NCBI GenBank assembly: GCA_965202605.1
Contig: OZ241838.1
Span: 815,817-879,816 of the forward strand
DNA: 64,000 bases
DNA from: a bacterium
GTDB taxonomy: Bacteria; JAAXHH01
Direction of reading: 5' to 3'
Part shown: piece by piece, positions 7,865 through 32,373 of the stretch
How positions within the stretch are numbered: the stretch's first letter is position 1
How the letters are laid out: each line of letters starts with the position of its first letter
Translations under genes and position numbers: made by a program
The notes under the pieces: model-generated
Databases searched by the model: none
Seen by the model: only the letters and a program-made list of their open reading frames with translations
Told to the model about the DNA's origin: nothing

Positions 7865-8824
7865 ATGCATCCCATTCTCCCCGAAATATTTAGCGCGGAA
7901 AAACGTATCCGGACCCATGTCCTGCAAACGCCCCTGATTCACTCCCTGCCGCTCTCGGCCAGGACGGGGGCGGATGTCCACCTGAAGATGGAGAGCGAGC
8001 AGCATACCAATTCCTTCAAGGCGCGCGGGGCCATGAACAAGGTGCTCTCGCTTACCGGCGAGGAACGGTCCCGCGGCGTGGTGACCGCCTCGACGGGAAA
8101 CCACGCGCAGGGCGTCGCCCGGGCCTGCATGATCGCCGGCTGCGCGGGTACGATCTATCTGCCCAGGCAGGTAGATCCATCCAAGGCGGAAGCGATCGGC
8201 CGGTATCCGGTCGACCTCGTCTTCCATGAAGGTGACGCACTGGAAACGGAGCTGCACGCCAAGCAGCAGGCCGAAGTCCTGGACCGGGTGTGGGTATCAC
8301 CTTACAACGATCCCCAGATCATCGGCGGCCAGGGCACCATCGGTATCGAACTTTCGCGTCAGTTGCCGTCCATCGACGATGTCTTTGTCACCGTCGGAGG
8401 CGGGGGCCTGATCGGTGGGATCGCCGTCTACCTGAAGGCGTATATGCCCGGCACGCGGATCATCGGCTGCCAGCCCGAACGGTCGGCGGCCATGTATCAC
8501 TGCGTGCGTGCCGGACGTATCGTCAGTACCGAGCACGGCGAAACGCTGTCGGATGGTTCCGCGGGCGACGTGGAACCGGGGTCGATCACCTTCCCGCTCT
8601 GCCGCGACCTGGTGGACGACTACATCCTGGTCTCGGAGGAGGAAATCGGCGAAGCCATCCGGTTCATGGTCGAAGCGCACCACAAGATCGTCGAAGGCGC
8701 CGCCGCGGTTGCCGTGGCTGCCCTGCTGAGGCGAAAAGACGCATTCCGTGGACGCACCGTGGCCATCGTCATCTGCGGCGCCAACATCGCCGCGTCGACG
8801 CTCGCGGGCGTATTGGCTGGTTGA
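7865..8824 (+). CDS. Threonine/serine dehydratase (fold-type II PLP enzyme)
   Basis: SFKARGA is the PLP lysine motif. The glycine-rich loop is GGGGLIGG. The product is 319 aa. Confidence 0.85.
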   Translation: MHPILPEIFSAEKRIRTHVLQTPLIHSLPLSARTGADVHLKMESEQHTNSFKARGAMNKVLSLTGEERSRGVVTASTGNHAQGVARACMIAGCAGTIYLPRQVDPSKAEAIGRYPVDLVFHEGDALETELHAKQQAEVLDRVWVSPYNDPQIIGGQGTIGIELSRQLPSIDDVFVTVGGGGLIGGIAVYLKAYMPGTRIIGCQPERSAAMYHCVRAGRIVSTEHGETLSDGSAGDVEPGSITFPLCRDLVDDYILVSEEEIGEAIRFMVEAHHKIVEGAAAVAVAALLRRKDAFRGRTVAIVICGANIAASTLAGVLAG

Positions 8825-14067: not shown

Positions 14068-14094
14068 GACCGGGTTTCACCCTGAAACCCGGTC
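14068..14094. terminator. Perfect 12-bp-stem hairpin (GACCGGGTTTCA-ccc-TGAAACCCGGTC) between convergent Fic and radical-SAM genes. Candidate bidirectional terminator, but it lacks a clear U-tract.
   Basis: The inverted repeat spans 14068-14079 and 14083-14094. It is preceded by three AT-rich GTA(G/T)TAA(C/T)G motifs at 14018-14059. Confidence 0.4.
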
Positions 14095-14144
14095 ACCGCC
14101 GTGTGGATGAACCCCCTTTCGCCTCATCCACACTGAAACCCGCC

Positions 14145-21086: not shown

Positions 21087-22631
21087 TCACGGCACGTTGT
21101 CGCCGGACTCCGGTATCGGTGAAAGGTCCCTGGTATCCTGGAGGAACTGCTCGTTCAGGAGAAGCAGTTCCTGGCGCCACTGGGGGTTATACATCTCTCC
21201 CCTCGCCGAGGAGTGCAAGAGTTCGTATCTGCCGATACCCCGCCGGTCGCCGAAGACGAAGAAATGACGGCCACCATCCGTGGTCCGTGACGGGTCTCCA
21301 TCCACGCCCTCGGTATAGTACCAGATCTGGTAGGTCTTCATGATGTTGTCGCTGTCATGCCGTACGATTTCTTCCGGTTGGCCATACCTTATGAACACCG
21401 TGCCCCGGTCGCTCTCCGCCCCGCCAAGTTGAAAGTCCGCATAGGAAAACCGTTCGTTGAAAACGGCCATGGATTCGTTTTCCGGAGTTTCGGGCGTTGG
21501 GTCGCGCATGCGCCAGAAGGCGATCAGGAACTCGGTCTTGCCTTGCAGGTCGAGACTGTCGTATAGGTCCCGCTCCTGTTTGGACGCCAGGATCGCCAGC
21601 ATCCTCCGGCCCCTTTTCGCCTGATCTTCCGTCAACACCGTAACAGGCGCCGGCGGTGGCGGCGGCTGGACGATCTCGAACACGGCCGACCGGGAAGCTT
21701 CCACACCGGTCCGGGCGTCTTTGACGGTGATTTCGAGGGTATAGACGTCTTCCGGAAAGGTCATGTAGTCCAGCGCGATCACGTCCAGTCCGTCGGTACC
21801 CGTAATCTGCCGGTTCTTTTTGGGCGGGAGGGGAAAAGTCATACCATTGGCATGACTGGTTACCGCGGGGTAAATGTCGTAAGCAGCCCCGTTTCCCGTC
21901 GAATCCGGGGCCAGATTGTATATCTCGAAATAAAGGAACATGTTACGAGGCTTGTAACTGCCATCAACGGGCATCTCGGCCCATTTCTCGAATATGCGAA
22001 GGGGATTGGGCACGACCAGCAGGCCGTTTTTCGTGAAACGGTTGCTGTCGTCGGCTCTTTGGATGAGCGTTGAGAACTGCAGATCGCTCACGGAAAGCTC
22101 AGATGAATCAAGCGGCTGGGCGACAAAGGGCTTGATCGCTTCGCCGTCGCGCCTGGAGTTCAGATCCGTCACCAGCACCTTCGCCCGGTACGAACCGGCG
22201 GGAACTCCCGCGGCGATCAATTCCATTATCACCCTTTCCTCGCCTCTCCGGGTAACGACGACCGGGCGGTCCGTCTGGTATTCCCTTTTCTGCACTGTAT
22301 GGAAGACGATATTGTCCTGATCGTCGATGATGGACAGGTCGATCGAGAAGGTGGCGACGTAGATCCTGTCCTCTTTTTCTTCGAGGATAAACTCGCTGGG
22401 GCGGCACAGGAAATAGAACTCCACGTAGGTCTGTGCCCCGGGCCCTCTGAACCCGCTCACGTCCACGGCAAAATCGATATCGCCGGTACTGTTGGCGGGT
22501 AACAGGACGGGGTCGCCGGCGGCGTTGGCGGAATCTGCATCTGTCGAGGTCGTTTCCTGTACCTGGGCTAAGGCGGACCCGGTGCATAGCAGGCAAACAA
22601 GACCGACAAGACGGCAGTAGAATCTAAACAC
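21087..22631 (-). CDS. Secreted GWxTD-domain protein
   Basis: A signal peptide is present. The C-terminal region (YQIWYY...RGTVFIRYGQPEEI...HFFVFGDRRG) resembles the GWxTD domain. The product is 514 aa. Confidence 0.6.
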   Translation of the reverse strand: MFRFYCRLVGLVCLLCTGSALAQVQETTSTDADSANAAGDPVLLPANSTGDIDFAVDVSGFRGPGAQTYVEFYFLCRPSEFILEEKEDRIYVATFSIDLSIIDDQDNIVFHTVQKREYQTDRPVVVTRRGEERVIMELIAAGVPAGSYRAKVLVTDLNSRRDGEAIKPFVAQPLDSSELSVSDLQFSTLIQRADDSNRFTKNGLLVVPNPLRIFEKWAEMPVDGSYKPRNMFLYFEIYNLAPDSTGNGAAYDIYPAVTSHANGMTFPLPPKKNRQITGTDGLDVIALDYMTFPEDVYTLEITVKDARTGVEASRSAVFEIVQPPPPPAPVTVLTEDQAKRGRRMLAILASKQERDLYDSLDLQGKTEFLIAFWRMRDPTPETPENESMAVFNERFSYADFQLGGAESDRGTVFIRYGQPEEIVRHDSDNIMKTYQIWYYTEGVDGDPSRTTDGGRHFFVFGDRRGIGRYELLHSSARGEMYNPQWRQELLLLNEQFLQDTRDLSPIPESGDNVP

Positions 22632-28139: not shown

Positions 28140-28430
28140 GAATGCCTCTGAGGACGATAAGGGGGTTCATTACAAAGGGCCGTTCGATTCGATGGCGAAT
28201 GCGGCGGGACTTCCATGGATCATATGGTTTCTGTTTCGGTCGCCGGCGGACGCTGCTTTCACACGGACCCTTACCAATCACACGGTCCCTTACCTTAATG
28301 AGACCCGACCGGCAAAACAACTGCTATCCTGACAGGACCGCCTATCACTTTGACATGTCCCGCTGCGCCGCGTACTTTTCATCATTACCACGCAACCGAT
28401 ACGCGACAGAACCAACTGCCGGGATCCGAA

Positions 28431-29438
28431 ATGACACGGAAACCCCTCCAGGATCGTGTGGCCGTAGTAACCGGAGCGACGCGCGGCACCGGACGCGGAA
28501 TCGCCCGCATGCTCGGGGCGGCGGGCGCCACGGTCTACTGCAGCGGTCGGAGCGTGAAAGGACACCCCGCCACGGCGGGGCGGCCCGAGACGATAGAGGA
28601 AACCGCCGAAATGGTCACGGCCGAAGGCGGCAAGGGCGTTGCCGTGCGTACGGACCACACGGTCGAAGCCGAGGTGGATCGGCTTTTCGGCCGCATCCGG
28701 AACGAGCAGAACCGGCTCGACATCCTGGTCAACGATATCTGGGGCGGTGACGAACTCACACAGTGGGGATCGCCGTTCTGGGAGCTCGATACCCCCCAGG
28801 GGCTCAGGCTGCTCGAACGGGCCGTGCACACGCATATCATTACCAGCCGGCTGGGCGCGCCCCTGATGGTCGAGCGTAATTCGGGGCTCATCGTGGAAGT
28901 TACCGACGGAGAAACCATGGGTTATCGCGGGAACCTGTTCTACGATCTGGCCAAGAACGCCACGATCCGATTGGGATACGCGATGGCGTGCGATCTTCAC
29001 AGGCACAACGTCACCGCGCTGACGGTCACACCGGGGTTCCTGCGGTCCGAGGCGATGCTGGACGGTTTCGGGGTCACGGAAGAGAACTGGCGGGATGCTA
29101 TCGAGCAGGATTCGTACTTCGCGGAATCGGAGACGCCGTGTTTCCTGGGACGGGGCGTAGCGGCCCTGGCGGCCGATCCGGACGTCGCTTCCAAGAACGG
29201 CGGGTTGTACTCGAGCGGTTCGCTCGCAAAAGAGTACGGTTTTACCGATCTCGATGGACGCCAGCCGGACTGGGGAAGCTTCTTCCGTGCCAGGGTACGG
29301 GAAATCATCGGAAGTGAGGACGCGCCGGACGAGATGAGCCTGTACATCGTCCGCGCCCGGATGTACCAGATCGAACTGGACCCCGGTGCGAAAGAGGAGT
29401 GCAAACGACTACGTGCTTATCTGGATATGCATGAATAA
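28431..29438 (+). CDS. SDR family oxidoreductase
   Basis: VAVVTGATRGTGRGIA is the SDR glycine motif. The start was taken at the internal Met MTRKPL. Confidence 0.85.
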   Translation: MTRKPLQDRVAVVTGATRGTGRGIARMLGAAGATVYCSGRSVKGHPATAGRPETIEETAEMVTAEGGKGVAVRTDHTVEAEVDRLFGRIRNEQNRLDILVNDIWGGDELTQWGSPFWELDTPQGLRLLERAVHTHIITSRLGAPLMVERNSGLIVEVTDGETMGYRGNLFYDLAKNATIRLGYAMACDLHRHNVTALTVTPGFLRSEAMLDGFGVTEENWRDAIEQDSYFAESETPCFLGRGVAALAADPDVASKNGGLYSSGSLAKEYGFTDLDGRQPDWGSFFRARVREIIGSEDAPDEMSLYIVRARMYQIELDPGAKEECKRLRAYLDMHE

Positions 29439-29442
29439 CTCG

Positions 29443-29452
29443 TGTTAAAGGT
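29443..29452. repeat. Left copy of an imperfect 10-bp direct repeat (TGTTAAAGGT) flanking the AT-rich islet. The right copy TGTTAACGGT is at 30882..30891.
   Basis: The two copies match at 9 of 10 positions. They bracket the roughly 44% GC segment. Confidence 0.4.
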
Positions 29453-29486
29453 AGTTGGTGATTATTGTTTTCAAAGTAAGATACAG

Positions 29487-29521
29487 TTTAGACGTATATC
29501 ACGTGATGTCGTACGTCTAAA
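29487..29521. promoter_or_regulatory. Perfect inverted repeat TTTAGACGTA-(15 nt containing CACGTG)-TACGTCTAAA upstream of the islet gene. Candidate operator or stem-loop.
   Basis: 10-bp perfect arms lie at 29487-29496 and 29512-29521. Confidence 0.5.
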
Positions 29522-29591
29522 GATACACCTGCGGTTCATAATGTCAGAATAGTGTCACTAAAGTTCAATAAATGAAGCCGGAGAGTAATCT

Positions 29592-30845
29592 ATGCAAGAC
29601 AAACTGATCAGAATAAGCCCAGCCCATGATAATGAAATAGAGATTTACGAACGACTGTTTCTCGGTGCAAATGTATCCGAAGGCAGTTTGAGTGAGGCAG
29701 ATCTTCGAAACCTGCTATTTCGAAATCCCGAGACGCTTCCAATTGCGGCAATCGATCCAGCATACATGGGAGTCATTCCAGTATGCAAAGAATTGAGAAC
29801 CCCATCTGGAAAGATCGATGCCTTGTTCGTTAACCCCCATGGACGGCTGGTACTTGTCGAGTTCAAACTTTGGCGTAACCCGGAAGCGCGTCGTGAGGTG
29901 ATCGGTCAGATTTTAGATTATGCTAAAGACTTGGCTACATGGGATTATGGAGACCTGCAACGCGAAGTATCTCTAAACACGAGAAATACTGGAAATGTTT
30001 TGTTTGATTTTGTTAGAAACGAAAACGAAGTGTTGAACGAGAATGACTTTGTAGACAACGTGAGCCGTCACCTGAAACGAGGAGAGTTTCTTCTGCTTAT
30101 CGTAGGTGATGGAATTCGAGAAGGGGTGGAGAACATCGTCGACTTCGTTCAGAGACATAGTGGCCTGCATTTCAACTTGGCGCTGGTCGAAGCGGCTCTT
30201 TACAAGGATGCTTCTGATCAACTTTTTGTTCATCCACGTGTCCTGGCTCGCACTGAAATAGTACAGCGGTTCACCTTTGAAGGCGACTTTGCATCCGTCG
30301 TCCCTGCTGATATAATCGAGATTGATGAAGGAAATGCTTCGAGTTCGCTGTCAGAAAAAGAAGAGCAGAACCAGCGATTCTGGAATAATGTTCTGAAGGA
30401 ATTTCAGTTTTCCGATTCTACCATAAAAATCCCAACAGACATATGGCCGGACACTCCTCAAGGTTCAACAATTCACGTGCCGGTTAGAAACTCAGCATTC
30501 AACGGATGGGCTTTGACCTTTGTCGCATTTCTATATAGAGACAAAGGCACTATGGGTTGCTATCTTTCTGTACGCAAGAATCATTCCAGGGAGGAAAGGA
30601 TATTTAAAGGAATTGCTGCCTCACTCGATGAATACAAGAAGATAATCGGGTATAAATTAAATAAGTGGGAGAACGCCAAAGGCAGGCCCAGAATCGGATT
30701 TTTGATGAATTGCGATGCGTCTGTAATAAAAGATGAAAAAAGTGAAGACTTCAGAAACGCGGTTTCCTGGATGCGGGAGCATTTTGACCGGCTGGTCAGT
30801 AACCTGCATCCTCAGCTCCAGGACATGCTTCAGGAAGGTCGATGA
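29592..30845 (+). CDS. Hypothetical protein with an N-terminal RecB/NucS-like PD-(D/E)XK nuclease core and a C-terminal Trp-rich domain of unknown function. The gene is in an AT-rich, horizontally acquired islet.
   Basis: GKIDALFVNPHGRLVLVEFKLW...EVIGQILDYAKDL carries the nuclease motifs D, ExK and QxxxY. The gene has roughly 44% GC against about 65% for its neighbours. A GGAG ribosome-binding site precedes the ATG. Confidence 0.8.
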   Translation: MQDKLIRISPAHDNEIEIYERLFLGANVSEGSLSEADLRNLLFRNPETLPIAAIDPAYMGVIPVCKELRTPSGKIDALFVNPHGRLVLVEFKLWRNPEARREVIGQILDYAKDLATWDYGDLQREVSLNTRNTGNVLFDFVRNENEVLNENDFVDNVSRHLKRGEFLLLIVGDGIREGVENIVDFVQRHSGLHFNLALVEAALYKDASDQLFVHPRVLARTEIVQRFTFEGDFASVVPADIIEIDEGNASSSLSEKEEQNQRFWNNVLKEFQFSDSTIKIPTDIWPDTPQGSTIHVPVRNSAFNGWALTFVAFLYRDKGTMGCYLSVRKNHSREERIFKGIAASLDEYKKIIGYKLNKWENAKGRPRIGFLMNCDASVIKDEKSEDFRNAVSWMREHFDRLVSNLHPQLQDMLQEGR

Positions 30846-30881
30846 ATCATGGACTACTAAGGTTTTAAGCACCTAATTTCT

Positions 30882-30891
30882 TGTTAACGGT
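30882..30891. repeat. Right copy (TGTTAACGGT) of the 10-bp direct repeat flanking the AT-rich islet
   Basis: It pairs with 29443..29452. Confidence 0.4.
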
Positions 30892-30978
30892 GCTATGCTG
30901 ATTTATACTGAACTCTACACTCCCCCGAATCCAACTTGAAAATGGGATGGATTCTCATCCCCGACGGAGGCTAAATCC

Positions 30979-32373
30979 ATGTCTGGCAATGACATTTTAA
31001 AAAACGTCGACTCCCGAATCCAGGACCCCGACAAGATCCAACAACTTTCGCGCCGCGGATTCATCGGCAGCATGGCAGCCGGTGCTGCCGGGGTGGCCGG
31101 CGCGTCGACCCTGCTGTCCACGGCGGCCGAGGCGGTCGCGGCGCCGGAACCCGATCTCCCTGCCGTTCCGGATACCCCTCCCGGAGGCGCCGCACCCGAT
31201 GATGAGGCTTACTGGGGGCAGGTGGCGGACCAGTTCCTGTTGCGCGACAACGTCATCTACATGAATTCCGGTACCCGGGGCATCTCGCCGATAAGCGTGC
31301 ACAAGGCACAGTTGGAGGCGATTGAAGCGGTGAATTCGGATCCCAATATGTGCTGGTCGACCTACAGCTTCGCGGGAATGAGCGAGATCCGGAAGAAACT
31401 GGCCGCGTTCGTGGGAGCCGGGGTCGATGAAGTCGCCGTCACGAACAGCACGACGGACGGCATGGGACTCGGTTTCATGGGGCTGGAACTGAACCGGGGC
31501 GATGAGATCCTGACCACGAACTATGACTACGGCTGGGTGAAGAACATGATGGCCTTCCGCGCGAAGCGGGACGGTCTGGAGTTCAAGATGGTGGACATTT
31601 CGGATCCGAGCTTCCGCACACCGGATGATCCGCAGAAAGTCGTCGATGCCGTGGCAGCCGGTATCACACCACGGACCAGATTCCTCACCATCTGCCATAT
31701 AAACTACACCGACGGTTTCGTCATGCCGGTCAAGGAGATCTGTGAGATTGCCCGTGACCGGGGAATCATCACCCTGGTCGACGGCGCCCAGCCGCCGGGC
31801 ATGATGAAAATGGACATGAGTGAACTCGGATGCGACATGTACGCGGGAGCGGGCCACAAGTACATGCTGGCCGCCCAGCATACGGGGTTTCTGTACCTGC
31901 GGAACGAAGTCGCCGAAAGGGTACATCCCCTGATATACACCGGTTCATCGAATCCCGAGTGGGCCGTTACGGGAGCCCGCAAGCTCGAACAACGCGGATC
32001 TTCGAGTTATTCGGACCGGATCTCCATCGGCGCGGCGCTGGATTTTCACAACAAACTCGGGGTCGAAGCCATCGAAGCCCGACTGCGGTACCTGTCCCAG
32101 CGCATGAGCCAGGGATTGAAGGCCATCGACGGCGTCACCGTGTACGCATCGGACGATCCCAGAATGTCCTGCGCCCTCGTATCCTTCTCCGTCAAGGACC
32201 TCGATCCATCGTTTATCGTAGGGCGTCTCTGGTACCGCAGCCCGAACATCTATATTCGCACCGTCGGCGCCGCGGGCGGTTTCAGAGGGGTCCGCGCCAC
32301 GCTGCACGTCATGGACACGGCCGATCATGTAGATACGTTAGTCGACAGGATCGCAAGTCTCGCACAGGCATGA
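30979..32373 (+). CDS. Aminotransferase class V-fold PLP enzyme (cysteine desulfurase / isopenicillin-N epimerase-like) with a TAT signal peptide
   Basis: SRRGFIGSMAAGAAGVAGAS...AEAVAAP is a TAT signal. GAGHKYM-type and class-V fold segments follow. The product is 464 aa. Confidence 0.8.
   Translation: MSGNDILKNVDSRIQDPDKIQQLSRRGFIGSMAAGAAGVAGASTLLSTAAEAVAAPEPDLPAVPDTPPGGAAPDDEAYWGQVADQFLLRDNVIYMNSGTRGISPISVHKAQLEAIEAVNSDPNMCWSTYSFAGMSEIRKKLAAFVGAGVDEVAVTNSTTDGMGLGFMGLELNRGDEILTTNYDYGWVKNMMAFRAKRDGLEFKMVDISDPSFRTPDDPQKVVDAVAAGITPRTRFLTICHINYTDGFVMPVKEICEIARDRGIITLVDGAQPPGMMKMDMSELGCDMYAGAGHKYMLAAQHTGFLYLRNEVAERVHPLIYTGSSNPEWAVTGARKLEQRGSSSYSDRISIGAALDFHNKLGVEAIEARLRYLSQRMSQGLKAIDGVTVYASDDPRMSCALVSFSVKDLDPSFIVGRLWYRSPNIYIRTVGAAGGFRGVRATLHVMDTADHVDTLVDRIASLAQA

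Follow-up and report, generated by a model that had tools for sequence, protein, structure and literature searches.

A replaceable AT-rich cassette encoding a NucS-like nuclease with a DUF4268-like domain: a candidate single-gene defence system

Results

Genes and base composition of the locus

The window (the whole 64-kb stretch of DNA that was analysed) had an overall GC content of 62.0% and contained one cassette of approximately 1.45 kb, starting at 29439 and ending near 30900, with 44% GC and a GC3 of 0.45. When measured over 300-nt steps, GC fell to 0.39–0.47 across 29400–31050 compared to 0.58–0.68 on either side, and no second marked low-GC segment was present in the 64 kb. The initial annotation had described an islet of about 44% GC in a background of about 65%; the interval 29439–30978 measured 44.0%, while the background figure was slightly high. 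The single 417-aa ORF that it had reported was found (Table 1), and the GC3 of this ORF was 0.446 compared to 0.75–0.78 in the Ldh2, SDR and PLP genes. The flanking genes were also as first described, with an adh_short/SDR gene upstream and, downstream, an Aminotran_5 PLP enzyme bearing a twin-arginine-like N-terminus (SRRGFIG). The extent of the cassette was based on the drop in GC, its absence from the empty sites of three relatives (L004, L005 and L013) and the collapse of sequence identity between genomes.

Table 1. Features of the cassette and its borders (positions are those of the window)
Feature	Position	Strand	Remarks
Variable cassette (islet)	29439..30900	.	From the SDR stop codon to the PLP promoter spacer; borders approximate, ~±30 nt
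Left copy of proposed target-site duplication (TGTTAAAGGT)	29443..29452	.	Judged chance
Perfect 10-bp inverted repeat, TTTAGACGTA-N15-TACGTCTAAA	29487..29521	.	CACGTG at 29500–29505; lineage-specific
Shine-Dalgarno GGAG	29580..29583	+	8 nt before ATG; conserved in 5/5 class-A upstream regions
CDS, 417 aa, two-domain nuclease	29592..30845, including stop codon	+	NucS_C-like PD-(D/E)XK and DUF4268-like domain
N-terminal nuclease domain, aa 35–226	29694..30269	+	Family-specific helical insert at aa ~117–165
Catalytic motif block	29817..29921	+	D76 29817–19, E90 29859–61, K92 29865–67, Q106 29907–09, Y110 29919–21
G172-D173-G174 after the last core strand	30105..30113	+	Invariant in both alignments A1 and A2
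Disordered acidic/Ser-rich interdomain linker, aa 223–252	30258..30347	+	pLDDT <50; poorly conserved
C-terminal DUF4268-like domain, aa 253–417	30348..30842	+	Alpha/beta secretion-chaperone/YbjN/YktB-like fold; most variable part
Promoter-like site of the PLP gene, TTGTTA-17-TATACT	30881..30909	+	Marks the right border, outside the cassette
Right copy of proposed target-site duplication (TGTTAACGGT)	30882..30891	.	Overlaps the −35 box of the PLP promoter; judged chance

Domains and conserved motifs of the nuclease

The motifs IDALFV (aa 75), VEFK (aa 89) and QILDY (aa 106), which had been read as the D, ExK and QxxxY elements of a nuclease triad, were conserved in 93 relatives of 26–51% identity (alignment A2). 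D76, E90, K92 and Q106 were invariant and Y110 was at least 90% conserved. The proposal of a NucS/RecB-type PD-(D/E)XK core in a stand-alone nuclease was likewise upheld, as NucS was the top match in both sequence and fold and the motifs aligned, with D76/E90/K92 corresponding to residues 160/174/176 of P. abyssi NucS chain 2vld in the family profile alignment. D76 and E90 would bind the metal, K92 would be catalytic and Q106/Y110 would complete the RecB-like motif.

The C-terminal 250 aa had been noted as Trp-rich and possibly DUF4268-like. Tryptophan was indeed enriched in the C-terminal domain (five residues, 3.0%, compared to 0.9% in the N-terminal part), but this domain comprises only 165 aa located behind the disordered linker. 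The window protein itself gave no match to Pfam DUF4268 (PF14088) at E ≤ 1, though 23 of the 93 full-length relatives did, with a best E of 1.1e-9. By transitivity through these relatives, the domain appears to be homologous to DUF4268.

With NucS as the best match to the catalytic domain, the protein could potentially be a NucS/EndoMS-type nuclease with a housekeeping role in repair or recombination, for example in mismatch or branched-DNA processing. The shared part is the catalytic-domain fold with its RecB-like motifs. NucS in addition has an N-terminal half-closed beta-barrel for DNA binding and dimerisation and a clamp-binding C-terminus (PMC8228993). The beta-barrel is missing from the window protein, in which only ~34 residues precede the nuclease core, and the NucS matches in Pfam and NCBIfam were confined to the catalytic part (model positions 128–199 of 250). 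They scored far from membership, at 21.5 bits for NCBIfam NF003270 (cut-off 216) and 13 bits for Pfam NucS_C (cut-off 24 bits). Sliding-clamp-binding motifs have the form Qxx[LIM]xx[FY][FY] or are of the QLxLF type; none was found at the C-terminus (...LHPQLQDMLQEGR), and this tail was not conserved in alignment A2. On these grounds, a bona fide NucS was rejected, and the profile searches did not place the protein in that repair family. The domain order is also reversed relative to NucS, with the nuclease first, the other domain is of the DUF4268 type, and the distribution is patchy and mobile. The repair role is also opposed by the foreign base composition and by the presence, absence and exchange of the gene among near-identical genomes; it is largely refuted and highly improbable.

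Repeats and promoter-like sites

The islet had initially been described as bracketed by a possible target-site duplication. This did not hold up: a 10-mer pair as good as the proposed one occurred in 19% of border-zone shuffles; in the empty sites, the sequences aligning to the two copies were already present ~100 nt apart; the right copy corresponds to the −35 box in the conserved promoter of the PLP gene; and the repeat was degraded in the closest relative. No recombinase, transposase or integrase gene was found in the window. With the duplication at chance level, no terminal inverted repeats framing the islet and no recombinase gene, a transposon or insertion element was rejected.

The reported palindrome exists and contains CACGTG, and just 2.3% of islet shuffles produced a perfect inverted repeat of 10 bp around a 3–20-nt loop. 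The palindrome was perfect in the window alone; L002 has an imperfect version and L096, L093 and L094 have none, so it does not belong to the core of the element. The RNA fold z-scores were only −1.7 on the plus strand and −0.8 on the minus strand, and together with the lack of conservation beyond L002 this led to rejection of a conserved operator or RNA element. An Rfam search of the window returned no match.

The −35/−10 pattern of the PLP gene was common to occupied and empty sites. No sigma-70-like promoter for the nuclease gene was found upstream on the plus strand. Promoter-like sites numbered 4 in total compared to 2.4 ± 1.6 in shuffles; as this total was no higher than in shuffles, an internal site at 30288–30316 was not trusted.

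Allele exchange at the SDR-PLP slot

In relatives, the SDR-PLP intergenic slot held a class-A allele (70–90% identity), a class-B allele (57–58%) or no cassette. At the three empty sites, the SDR and PLP genes were contiguous without the insert, consistent with the initial proposal of an acquired islet. At least eight syntenic genomes from the lineage had the slot filled, and their alleles were deeply divergent; this points to a cassette site that is old and recombining, not to a single insertion event. The foreign composition and the empty sites thus support acquisition, but its reading as recent was revised, since the slot has long been occupied by divergent alleles. The copies in relatives were equally low in GC, hypervariable and sometimes missing, rather than of normal GC with a conserved housekeeping role.

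Between genomes with flanks that were 94–100% identical, identity fell to 34–81% across the cassette, and this collapse coincided exactly with the segment homologous to the cassette. The dS of the nuclease gene ranged from 1.6 to saturated compared to 0.07–0.35 in the neighbouring genes, while dN/dS against class-A alleles was 0.14–0.20. Breakpoints were located at the ends of both flanking genes, and recombination tracts reached into the adjoining PLP gene. The SDR-PLP slot is a replaceable cassette site, where the cassette is swapped, kept or lost among close relatives. Alleles would be swapped, or the cassette deleted, by homologous recombination acting on the conserved flanks and inside the gene.

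A fixed slot without an integrase could also be accounted for by a selfish homing-endonuclease-like or addiction element that cuts the empty SDR-PLP site or cassette-less genomes, promoting its own copying or retention. The sharing of one intergenic slot by divergent alleles with no recombinase or target-site duplication, the AT-rich, stand-alone nature of the gene and the tracts running into the PLP gene would all fit such an element. Exchange via conserved flanks, however, accounts for the fixed slot equally well, empty sites persist among close relatives, and other members of the family are found at a wide range of unrelated loci as well as on megaplasmids and in prophage-like elements. To our knowledge, proteins combining PD-(D/E)XK and DUF4268 are not known as homing enzymes, and we consider a selfish element unlikely.

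Family distribution and gene neighbourhoods

More than 4,165 full-length homologues of the window nuclease were found, and clustering at 50% identity gave 5,008 clusters. Neither Pfam nor NCBIfam supplied a family-level name and the PADLOC matches were weak. Plasmid carriage was rare (17 of 72,556 records, mostly megaplasmids). A phage origin received little support: a search of 50,697 phage records returned nothing, BFVD gave only weak fold matches, to the nuclease domain, and the 33 matches among 2.9 M IMG/VR contigs resembled cargo at the ends of integrative elements.

The neighbouring genes were metabolic at the window locus and in the eight syntenic genomes, and the window copy was not embedded in a BREX, DISARM or type I R-M system. 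Some distant homologues adjoined or were inside known defence systems. In a PADLOC/Pfam census (counts per family), the sampled neighbourhoods were mostly metabolic and the apparent enrichment of defence genes was only moderate. As C5 or N6/N4 DNA methyltransferases adjoined some homologues, the nuclease could in principle be the restriction component of a classical R-M pair with its methyltransferase encoded elsewhere in the genome. Against this, no methyltransferase gene was found within ±10 kb in the window or in the eight syntenic genomes, and one was missing from most of the 93 sampled loci. Furthermore, swapping the R-gene allele without the M gene would be lethal. We regard classical R-M as very unlikely.

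Discussion

The locus is best read as a single-gene, horizontally circulating immunity cassette encoding a stand-alone, type IV-like, modification-dependent defence nuclease, an interpretation in which we have moderate confidence. As the gene is under purifying selection yet has no methyltransferase or partner gene, we infer that the nuclease acts only on a DNA feature that is absent from the host. By analogy with MdgA/MdgB and the DUF4268-bearing GmrSD, this feature would most likely be a phage-type base modification. The C-terminal DUF4268-type domain on its flexible linker would be responsible for target recognition and probably dimerisation, and its fastest divergence within the protein would be expected of a recognition domain under phage-driven frequency-dependent selection.

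Some of the data count against the defence reading. The gene keeps a low GC3 of 0.45, in a genome with a GC3 of 0.76, despite saturated dS. The PADLOC matches were weak (21–32 bits), the window protein did not itself match Pfam DUF4268, and the mostly metabolic neighbourhoods with moderate defence-gene enrichment point the same way. A few homologues adjoin C5-methyltransferases, which would suggest either classical R-M pairing or a conflict with 5mC-dependent cutting. Finally, the secretion-chaperone/YbjN-like fold of the C-terminal domain is more familiar from protein-binding than from DNA-binding domains.

A chaperone-like C-terminal domain could alternatively sense a phage protein or infection cue and free an autoinhibited, non-specific nuclease. 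This abortive-infection or sensor-effector mechanism would degrade phage and possibly host DNA, in analogy to Shedu SduA and Card1/Can2-type effectors. However, DUF4268 is predicted to bind DNA (PMC5714182) and is repeatedly joined to modification-dependent nucleases, a Pfam search of the window protein gave no match to DUF4263, CARF or SAVED, and there was no sign of toxicity or of an antitoxin. Abortive infection is thus doubtful.

The defence reading can be extended, with low confidence, to a very large and unnamed family of immunity nucleases (~5,000 clusters at 50% identity) for which four propositions are taken jointly. A rapidly diversifying, secretion-chaperone-like DUF4268 would direct the NucS-type cutter; this domain would read a phage-specific DNA hypermodification or a phage protein and constitute a new reader fold; the ancient alleles would represent a balanced polymorphism at a fixed slot; and the AT-richness would be functional, for example in xenogeneic silencing of a toxic gene.

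If the defence role holds, a large, cross-phylum and unannotated family joins the stand-alone restriction-like defences, and DUF4268 could be tested as the module that sets the specificity of modification-dependent nucleases. A clean natural experiment is available at this locus, where near-identical genomes have a class-A cassette, a class-B cassette or none and breakpoints lie at the ends of the flanking genes, so that allele and C-domain swaps could be attributed to phage specificity. The unameliorated composition of long-resident alleles is also relevant to the maintenance and regulation of foreign defence genes in uncultivated bacteria of high GC content.

Comparison with known systems

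In Shedu SduA, the nuclease domain is C-terminal. The window protein differs in having its nuclease at the N-terminus, in lacking DUF4263 and in its accessory domains. The type IV enzymes of the GmrSD/BrxU type are closer in one respect, as their nuclease is accompanied by an accessory DUF4268 domain and works without a methyltransferase (PMC4619093, PMC5714182). The window nuclease is likewise without a cognate methyltransferase, both within ±10 kb and in its syntenic relatives. The catalytic parts are unrelated, being a DUF262 ParB-like NTPase with a DUF1524 HNH domain in GmrSD/BrxU and PD-(D/E)XK in the window protein.

The initial annotation had called the protein uncharacterised, which is correct for a family-level Pfam or NCBIfam name. 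However, PDC-S11 is already a listed candidate, and MdgA and MdgB, also composed of nuclease and DUF4268, have been shown to be antiphage. MdgA and MdgB are single-gene, modification-dependent antiphage nucleases with a predicted nuclease domain and DUF4268 (Cell Host Microbe 2025, PMC12366544). The features that define them are protection against T4 but not T4-GT7 and cleavage of modified DNA in vitro. MdgA depends on one acidic catalytic residue (E77A), and its homologues are widespread across phyla (PMC12366544). The likeness to the window nuclease, compared by description only, is the combination of nuclease and DUF4268 in one gene. The catalytic Glu is at position 77 in MdgA, whereas in the window family it was found at 78–103 in 92 of the 93 sampled members and at 121 in one, never at 77.

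PDC-S11 is a phage defence candidate in PADLOC (Payne et al., bioRxiv 10.1101/2024.01.29.577857; PADLOC-DB v2). It is also a single gene with the same domain order, an N-terminal D...E-x-(K/Q)...QxxxY core followed by a C-terminal DUF4268. PDC-S11 models matched both halves of the window protein as well as 92 of the 93 relatives, and the C-terminal halves of PDC-S11, corresponding to DUF4268, aligned to aa 245–414 of the window protein. For the window protein, these matches were weak (E 1e-8 to 4e-5, one half per model) compared to the E of 4e-116 that a genuine PDC-S11 member scored on the PDC-S11 model. An hhalign comparison of the family profile with one genuine PDC-S11 protein produced a sensible alignment at 18% identity, with a probability of just 16%, and the link therefore rests on the HMM matches. 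The window family is ~50–60 aa longer, with the helical insert at aa ~117–165 and the invariant GDG motif, and its E-x-K is replaced by E-N-Q in the single genuine PDC-S11 member that was compared. The guilt by embedding applied to PDC-S11 does not extend to the window copy and its eight syntenic counterparts, given their metabolic neighbours. One genuine PDC-S11 gene adjoins a member of the window nuclease's own family. Based on the sequence matches, PDC-S11 appears to be a distant sister family of the window nuclease.

A cassette slot between the SDR and PLP genes

The initial annotation described an AT-rich islet carrying one 417 aa ORF (NUC) between an SDR gene and a class-V PLP enzyme gene, and both the ORF and the islet were confirmed. 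The GC fraction was 0.39-0.47 across ~29400-31050 compared to 0.58-0.68 on both sides (whole window, 62.0%), and the GC3 of NUC was 0.446 compared to 0.75-0.78 for the three adjoining genes. The islet was the only low-GC segment of this sort in the 64-kb window, within which no tRNA genes or Rfam families were found.

Coordinates of features in the window and in compared loci (L numbers)
Feature	Position (strand)	Remarks
SDR ORF, mechanical call	28350-29438	TTG start at 28350, 362 aa; gene calls of all relatives 335-339 aa, equivalent to ATG at 28431
Islet	29439-30978	GC 44.0%
Left 10-mer	29443	TGTTAAAGGT
Inverted repeat	29487-29521	TTTAGACGTA-N15-TACGTCTAAA
NUC ORF	29592-30845 (+)	417 aa
Sigma-70-like match	30288-30316 (+)	TTTGCA-17-TATAAT with TG, 10/12; inside NUC at the interdomain linker
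Right 10-mer	30882	TGTTAACGGT
PLP enzyme gene	30979-32373
Putative export signal	30979-31100	…LSRRGFIGSMAAGAAGVAGAST…
Other perfect 10-bp inverted repeats, short loops	14068-14094, 14101-14133; 21142-21172	first two adjacent
SDR ortholog at an empty site	L013:8079-9006	two pieces abutting at 8735/8737
Genuine PDC-S11/DUF4268 protein	L148:1521-2573 (-)	PADLOC E 4e-116; Pfam DUF4268 E 6.8e-27
NUC family member	L148:2842-3960 (+)
NUC family member with neighbours	L115:5582-10339	IMG/VR; 409 aa

The window, islet included, was collinear with the 3.94-Mb MAG chromosome OY843748.1 at 86-88% nucleotide identity, where the NUC gene had 0.47 GC and 90% protein identity to the window gene. Orthologous loci were sought with the upstream SDR protein as query, using one genome per species. 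Occupied sites carried either class-A alleles, with 70-90% identity to the window protein (L002, L096, L093, L094/L095), or class-B alleles, with 57-58% identity (L003, L210, L211/L212). Empty sites, in which the gap between the SDR and PLP genes was only ~190-215 bp, were found at L004, L005 and L013. The split SDR match in L013 may reflect a frameshift or assembly error.

Class A, class B and empty states were interleaved on the flanking-protein tree. The clearest evidence for a cassette exchange slot came from genome pairs with near-identical flanks: L093 and L094 shared 93-100% identity outside the cassette and 55-81% within, and L096 and L210 shared 94-98% outside (with one short dip between Ldh2 and SDR) and 34-68% within. 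In both pairs, the breakpoints were the SDR 3′ end and the PLP promoter. The SDR-PLP interval was shown to be a fixed slot whose cassette is present in some genomes, absent from others and subject to replacement by other alleles.

Features at the cassette borders

The two 10-mers had been proposed as a target-site duplication. In alignments of occupied and empty sites, the right copy was the -35 box of a conserved PLP promoter (TTGnnn-N17-TATACT) present in empty sites too, and the left copy aligned just past the SDR stop codon with sequence likewise found there; the L002 counterparts were TGTT-AAGGT and TGTTAACCGC. As both copies pre-exist in empty sites and 19% of shuffles yielded an equally good pair, the duplication was discarded. 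Neither terminal inverted repeats nor a recombinase gene was present at the cassette.

The significance attached to the palindrome was also not sustained. Although a perfect 10-bp inverted repeat of this kind arose within the islet in only 2.3% of shuffles, the window holds four such sites, and the palindrome was imperfect in L002, missing from the other class-A cassettes and of no unusual stability as RNA (z -1.7). The three further sites may be terminators. The conserved elements 5′ of NUC were a ribosome-binding site (GGAG) and, ~35 nt ahead of the ATG, a short element resembling CAGnATAGTGnCA. Sigma-70-like sites were no more numerous in the islet than in shuffles, and the strong match inside NUC was not closely followed by an in-frame start codon. 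The N-terminus of the PLP enzyme, annotated as exported, does resemble a twin-arginine signal in its sequence.

Age of the NUC alleles

Synonymous divergence (dS) between pairs of loci
Pair	Ldh2	SDR	PLP	NUC
L093/L094	0.067	0.218	0.122	1.57
L096/L210	0.119	0.110	not computed	saturated
L093/L211	0.231	0.345	0.259	saturated

The dS of NUC far exceeded that of the flanking genes, indicating that the alleles are far older than the genomes carrying them. Accelerated evolution in place was thereby ruled out, leaving allele import or long-term balanced polymorphism. With a dN/dS of 0.14-0.20 (window versus class-A alleles), the gene is under purifying selection. The C-domain diverges fastest, being the more divergent part in every comparison (58% versus 85% identity for L093/L094), and the mosaic domain similarities between alleles indicate intragenic recombination. 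The window PLP enzyme was 88-89% identical to L096/L210 and 77% to L002, whereas the genes flanking the cassette on its opposite side, Ldh2 and SDR, were 93% identical to L002. This incongruence shows that recombination tracts reach past the cassette into the PLP gene.

All occupied copies had a GC of 0.43-0.48 against a background of 0.60-0.65 (window, L002, L096, L093, L094, L003, L210, L211). Synonymous sites between alleles were saturated, yet the GC3 of the window gene was not shifted towards the host value. Such a lack of compositional amelioration would point either to alleles being re-imported again and again from a pool richer in AT or to AT-richness being selected for.

The NUC protein family

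Direct library searches were nearly silent. Pfam returned NucS_C alone, below threshold (E 0.1, aa 35-94), NCBIfam NucS reached 21.5 bits (cut-off 216), the sole PDB sequence match was NucS 2vld (E 0.14), and PHROGs gave no useful match. The PADLOC models for PDC-S11, a phage defence candidate, matched both halves (aa 63-211, E 1e-8; aa 245-414, E 1e-6 to 4e-5). Homologs numbered more than 4,165 in a word-index search, and an exhaustive profile search gave 5,008 clusters at 50% identity (872 at E <= 1e-30), almost all members being 390-430 aa long.

The nuclease motif strings reported in the initial annotation were all present. Residues invariant in 93 relatives (26-51% identity) included E35, P50, D76, E90, K92, L93, N96, R101, V103, Q106 and G172-D173-G174, with Y110 conserved in at least 90%. 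Pfam DUF4268 was matched by 23 of these relatives (best E 1.1e-9), bearing out the suspected DUF4268-like C-terminus; 11 matched NucS_C and 92, weakly, a PDC-S11 model. As judged from sequence, NUC was shown to stand alone, to be functional and under selection, and to encode a nuclease of two domains.

In the family profile, D76, E90 and K92 aligned with the catalytic D, E and K of NucS from P. abyssi (chain residues 160, 174 and 176). The N-terminal DNA-binding/dimerisation domain and the clamp-binding tail of NucS (PMC8228993) are missing, so in NUC the NucS-type catalytic domain forms part of another sort of protein; that it is a DNA-repair enzyme is scarcely probable. Other enzymes named in the comparison were XisH, nicking and type IIS enzymes, and the defence nucleases SduA, Can2, Card1, HamA, NucC, AspBHI and MspJI.

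Genomic contexts of the family

Close homologs in other genomes were lone genes amid metabolic genes; a Bosea plasmid homolog had Cas6/RAMP genes nearby. Homologs occurred in 17 of 72,556 plasmid records, in none of the 50,697 phage records searched and in 33 IMG/VR contigs. In L115, the contig examined in detail, the family member shares 4 nt with the end of the HTH_3 gene upstream of it; next come a large serine recombinase and, encoded on the other strand, queA of the host. This is where accessory cargo sits, at the terminus of a prophage or integrative element. Similar layouts were seen in L105-L129, and large-serine-recombinase domains in 11-13 of 125 neighbours (mostly viral set).

The 251 non-redundant nearest neighbours at 93 loci were a mix of metabolic and restriction-type genes (C5-methyltransferase, Mrr_cat, DUF4357, WYL, HSDR_N, SWI2/SNF2), with one genuine PDC-S11 and one PDC-S04. 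The restriction-type neighbours are suggestive of a defence context. In L148, two paralogous nuclease-DUF4268 genes stand side by side.

Proposed function and comparison with known systems

A defence role in general is probable for NUC, which would act as an anti-phage restriction-like nuclease. Host DNA would be spared because cleavage would require a modification of foreign DNA, with DUF4268 as the putative reader; such dependence is proposed tentatively, at somewhat below even chances. A nuclease triggered by a protein and acting abortively is unlikely, a selfish homing or addiction element quite improbable, and a restriction gene whose methyltransferase gene lies at a distance very improbable. 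Allele turnover would reflect phage-driven selection, and the composite of anti-phage nuclease, modification-dependent sparing and phage-driven turnover is regarded as evenly balanced. Of the initial annotation, the foreign stand-alone nuclease, probably defensive, with its DUF4268-like tail was retained.

The 145 PDC systems are putative ('phage defence candidates') and were picked up as genes lying within BREX, DISARM and type I R-M loci (10.1101/2024.01.29.577857). The genuine PDC-S11 of L148 passes the Pfam DUF4268 threshold, has the motif D...E-N-Q...QxxxY and lacks the ~50 aa helical insert of the NUC family. The NUC family is accordingly a separate sister family to PDC-S11 rather than an ordinary part of it. 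GmrSD type IV enzymes carry DUF4268 as an accessory domain (PMC4619093; PMC5714182). MdgA and MdgB also contain it; these are single-gene defences active against T4 but not against unmodified T4-GT7, and MdgA degrades T4 DNA in vitro (PMC12366544). NUC is likened to MdgA/MdgB by domain description. The cassette probably belongs among the nuclease-DUF4268 single-gene defences and adds a well-resolved hypervariable cassette locus.
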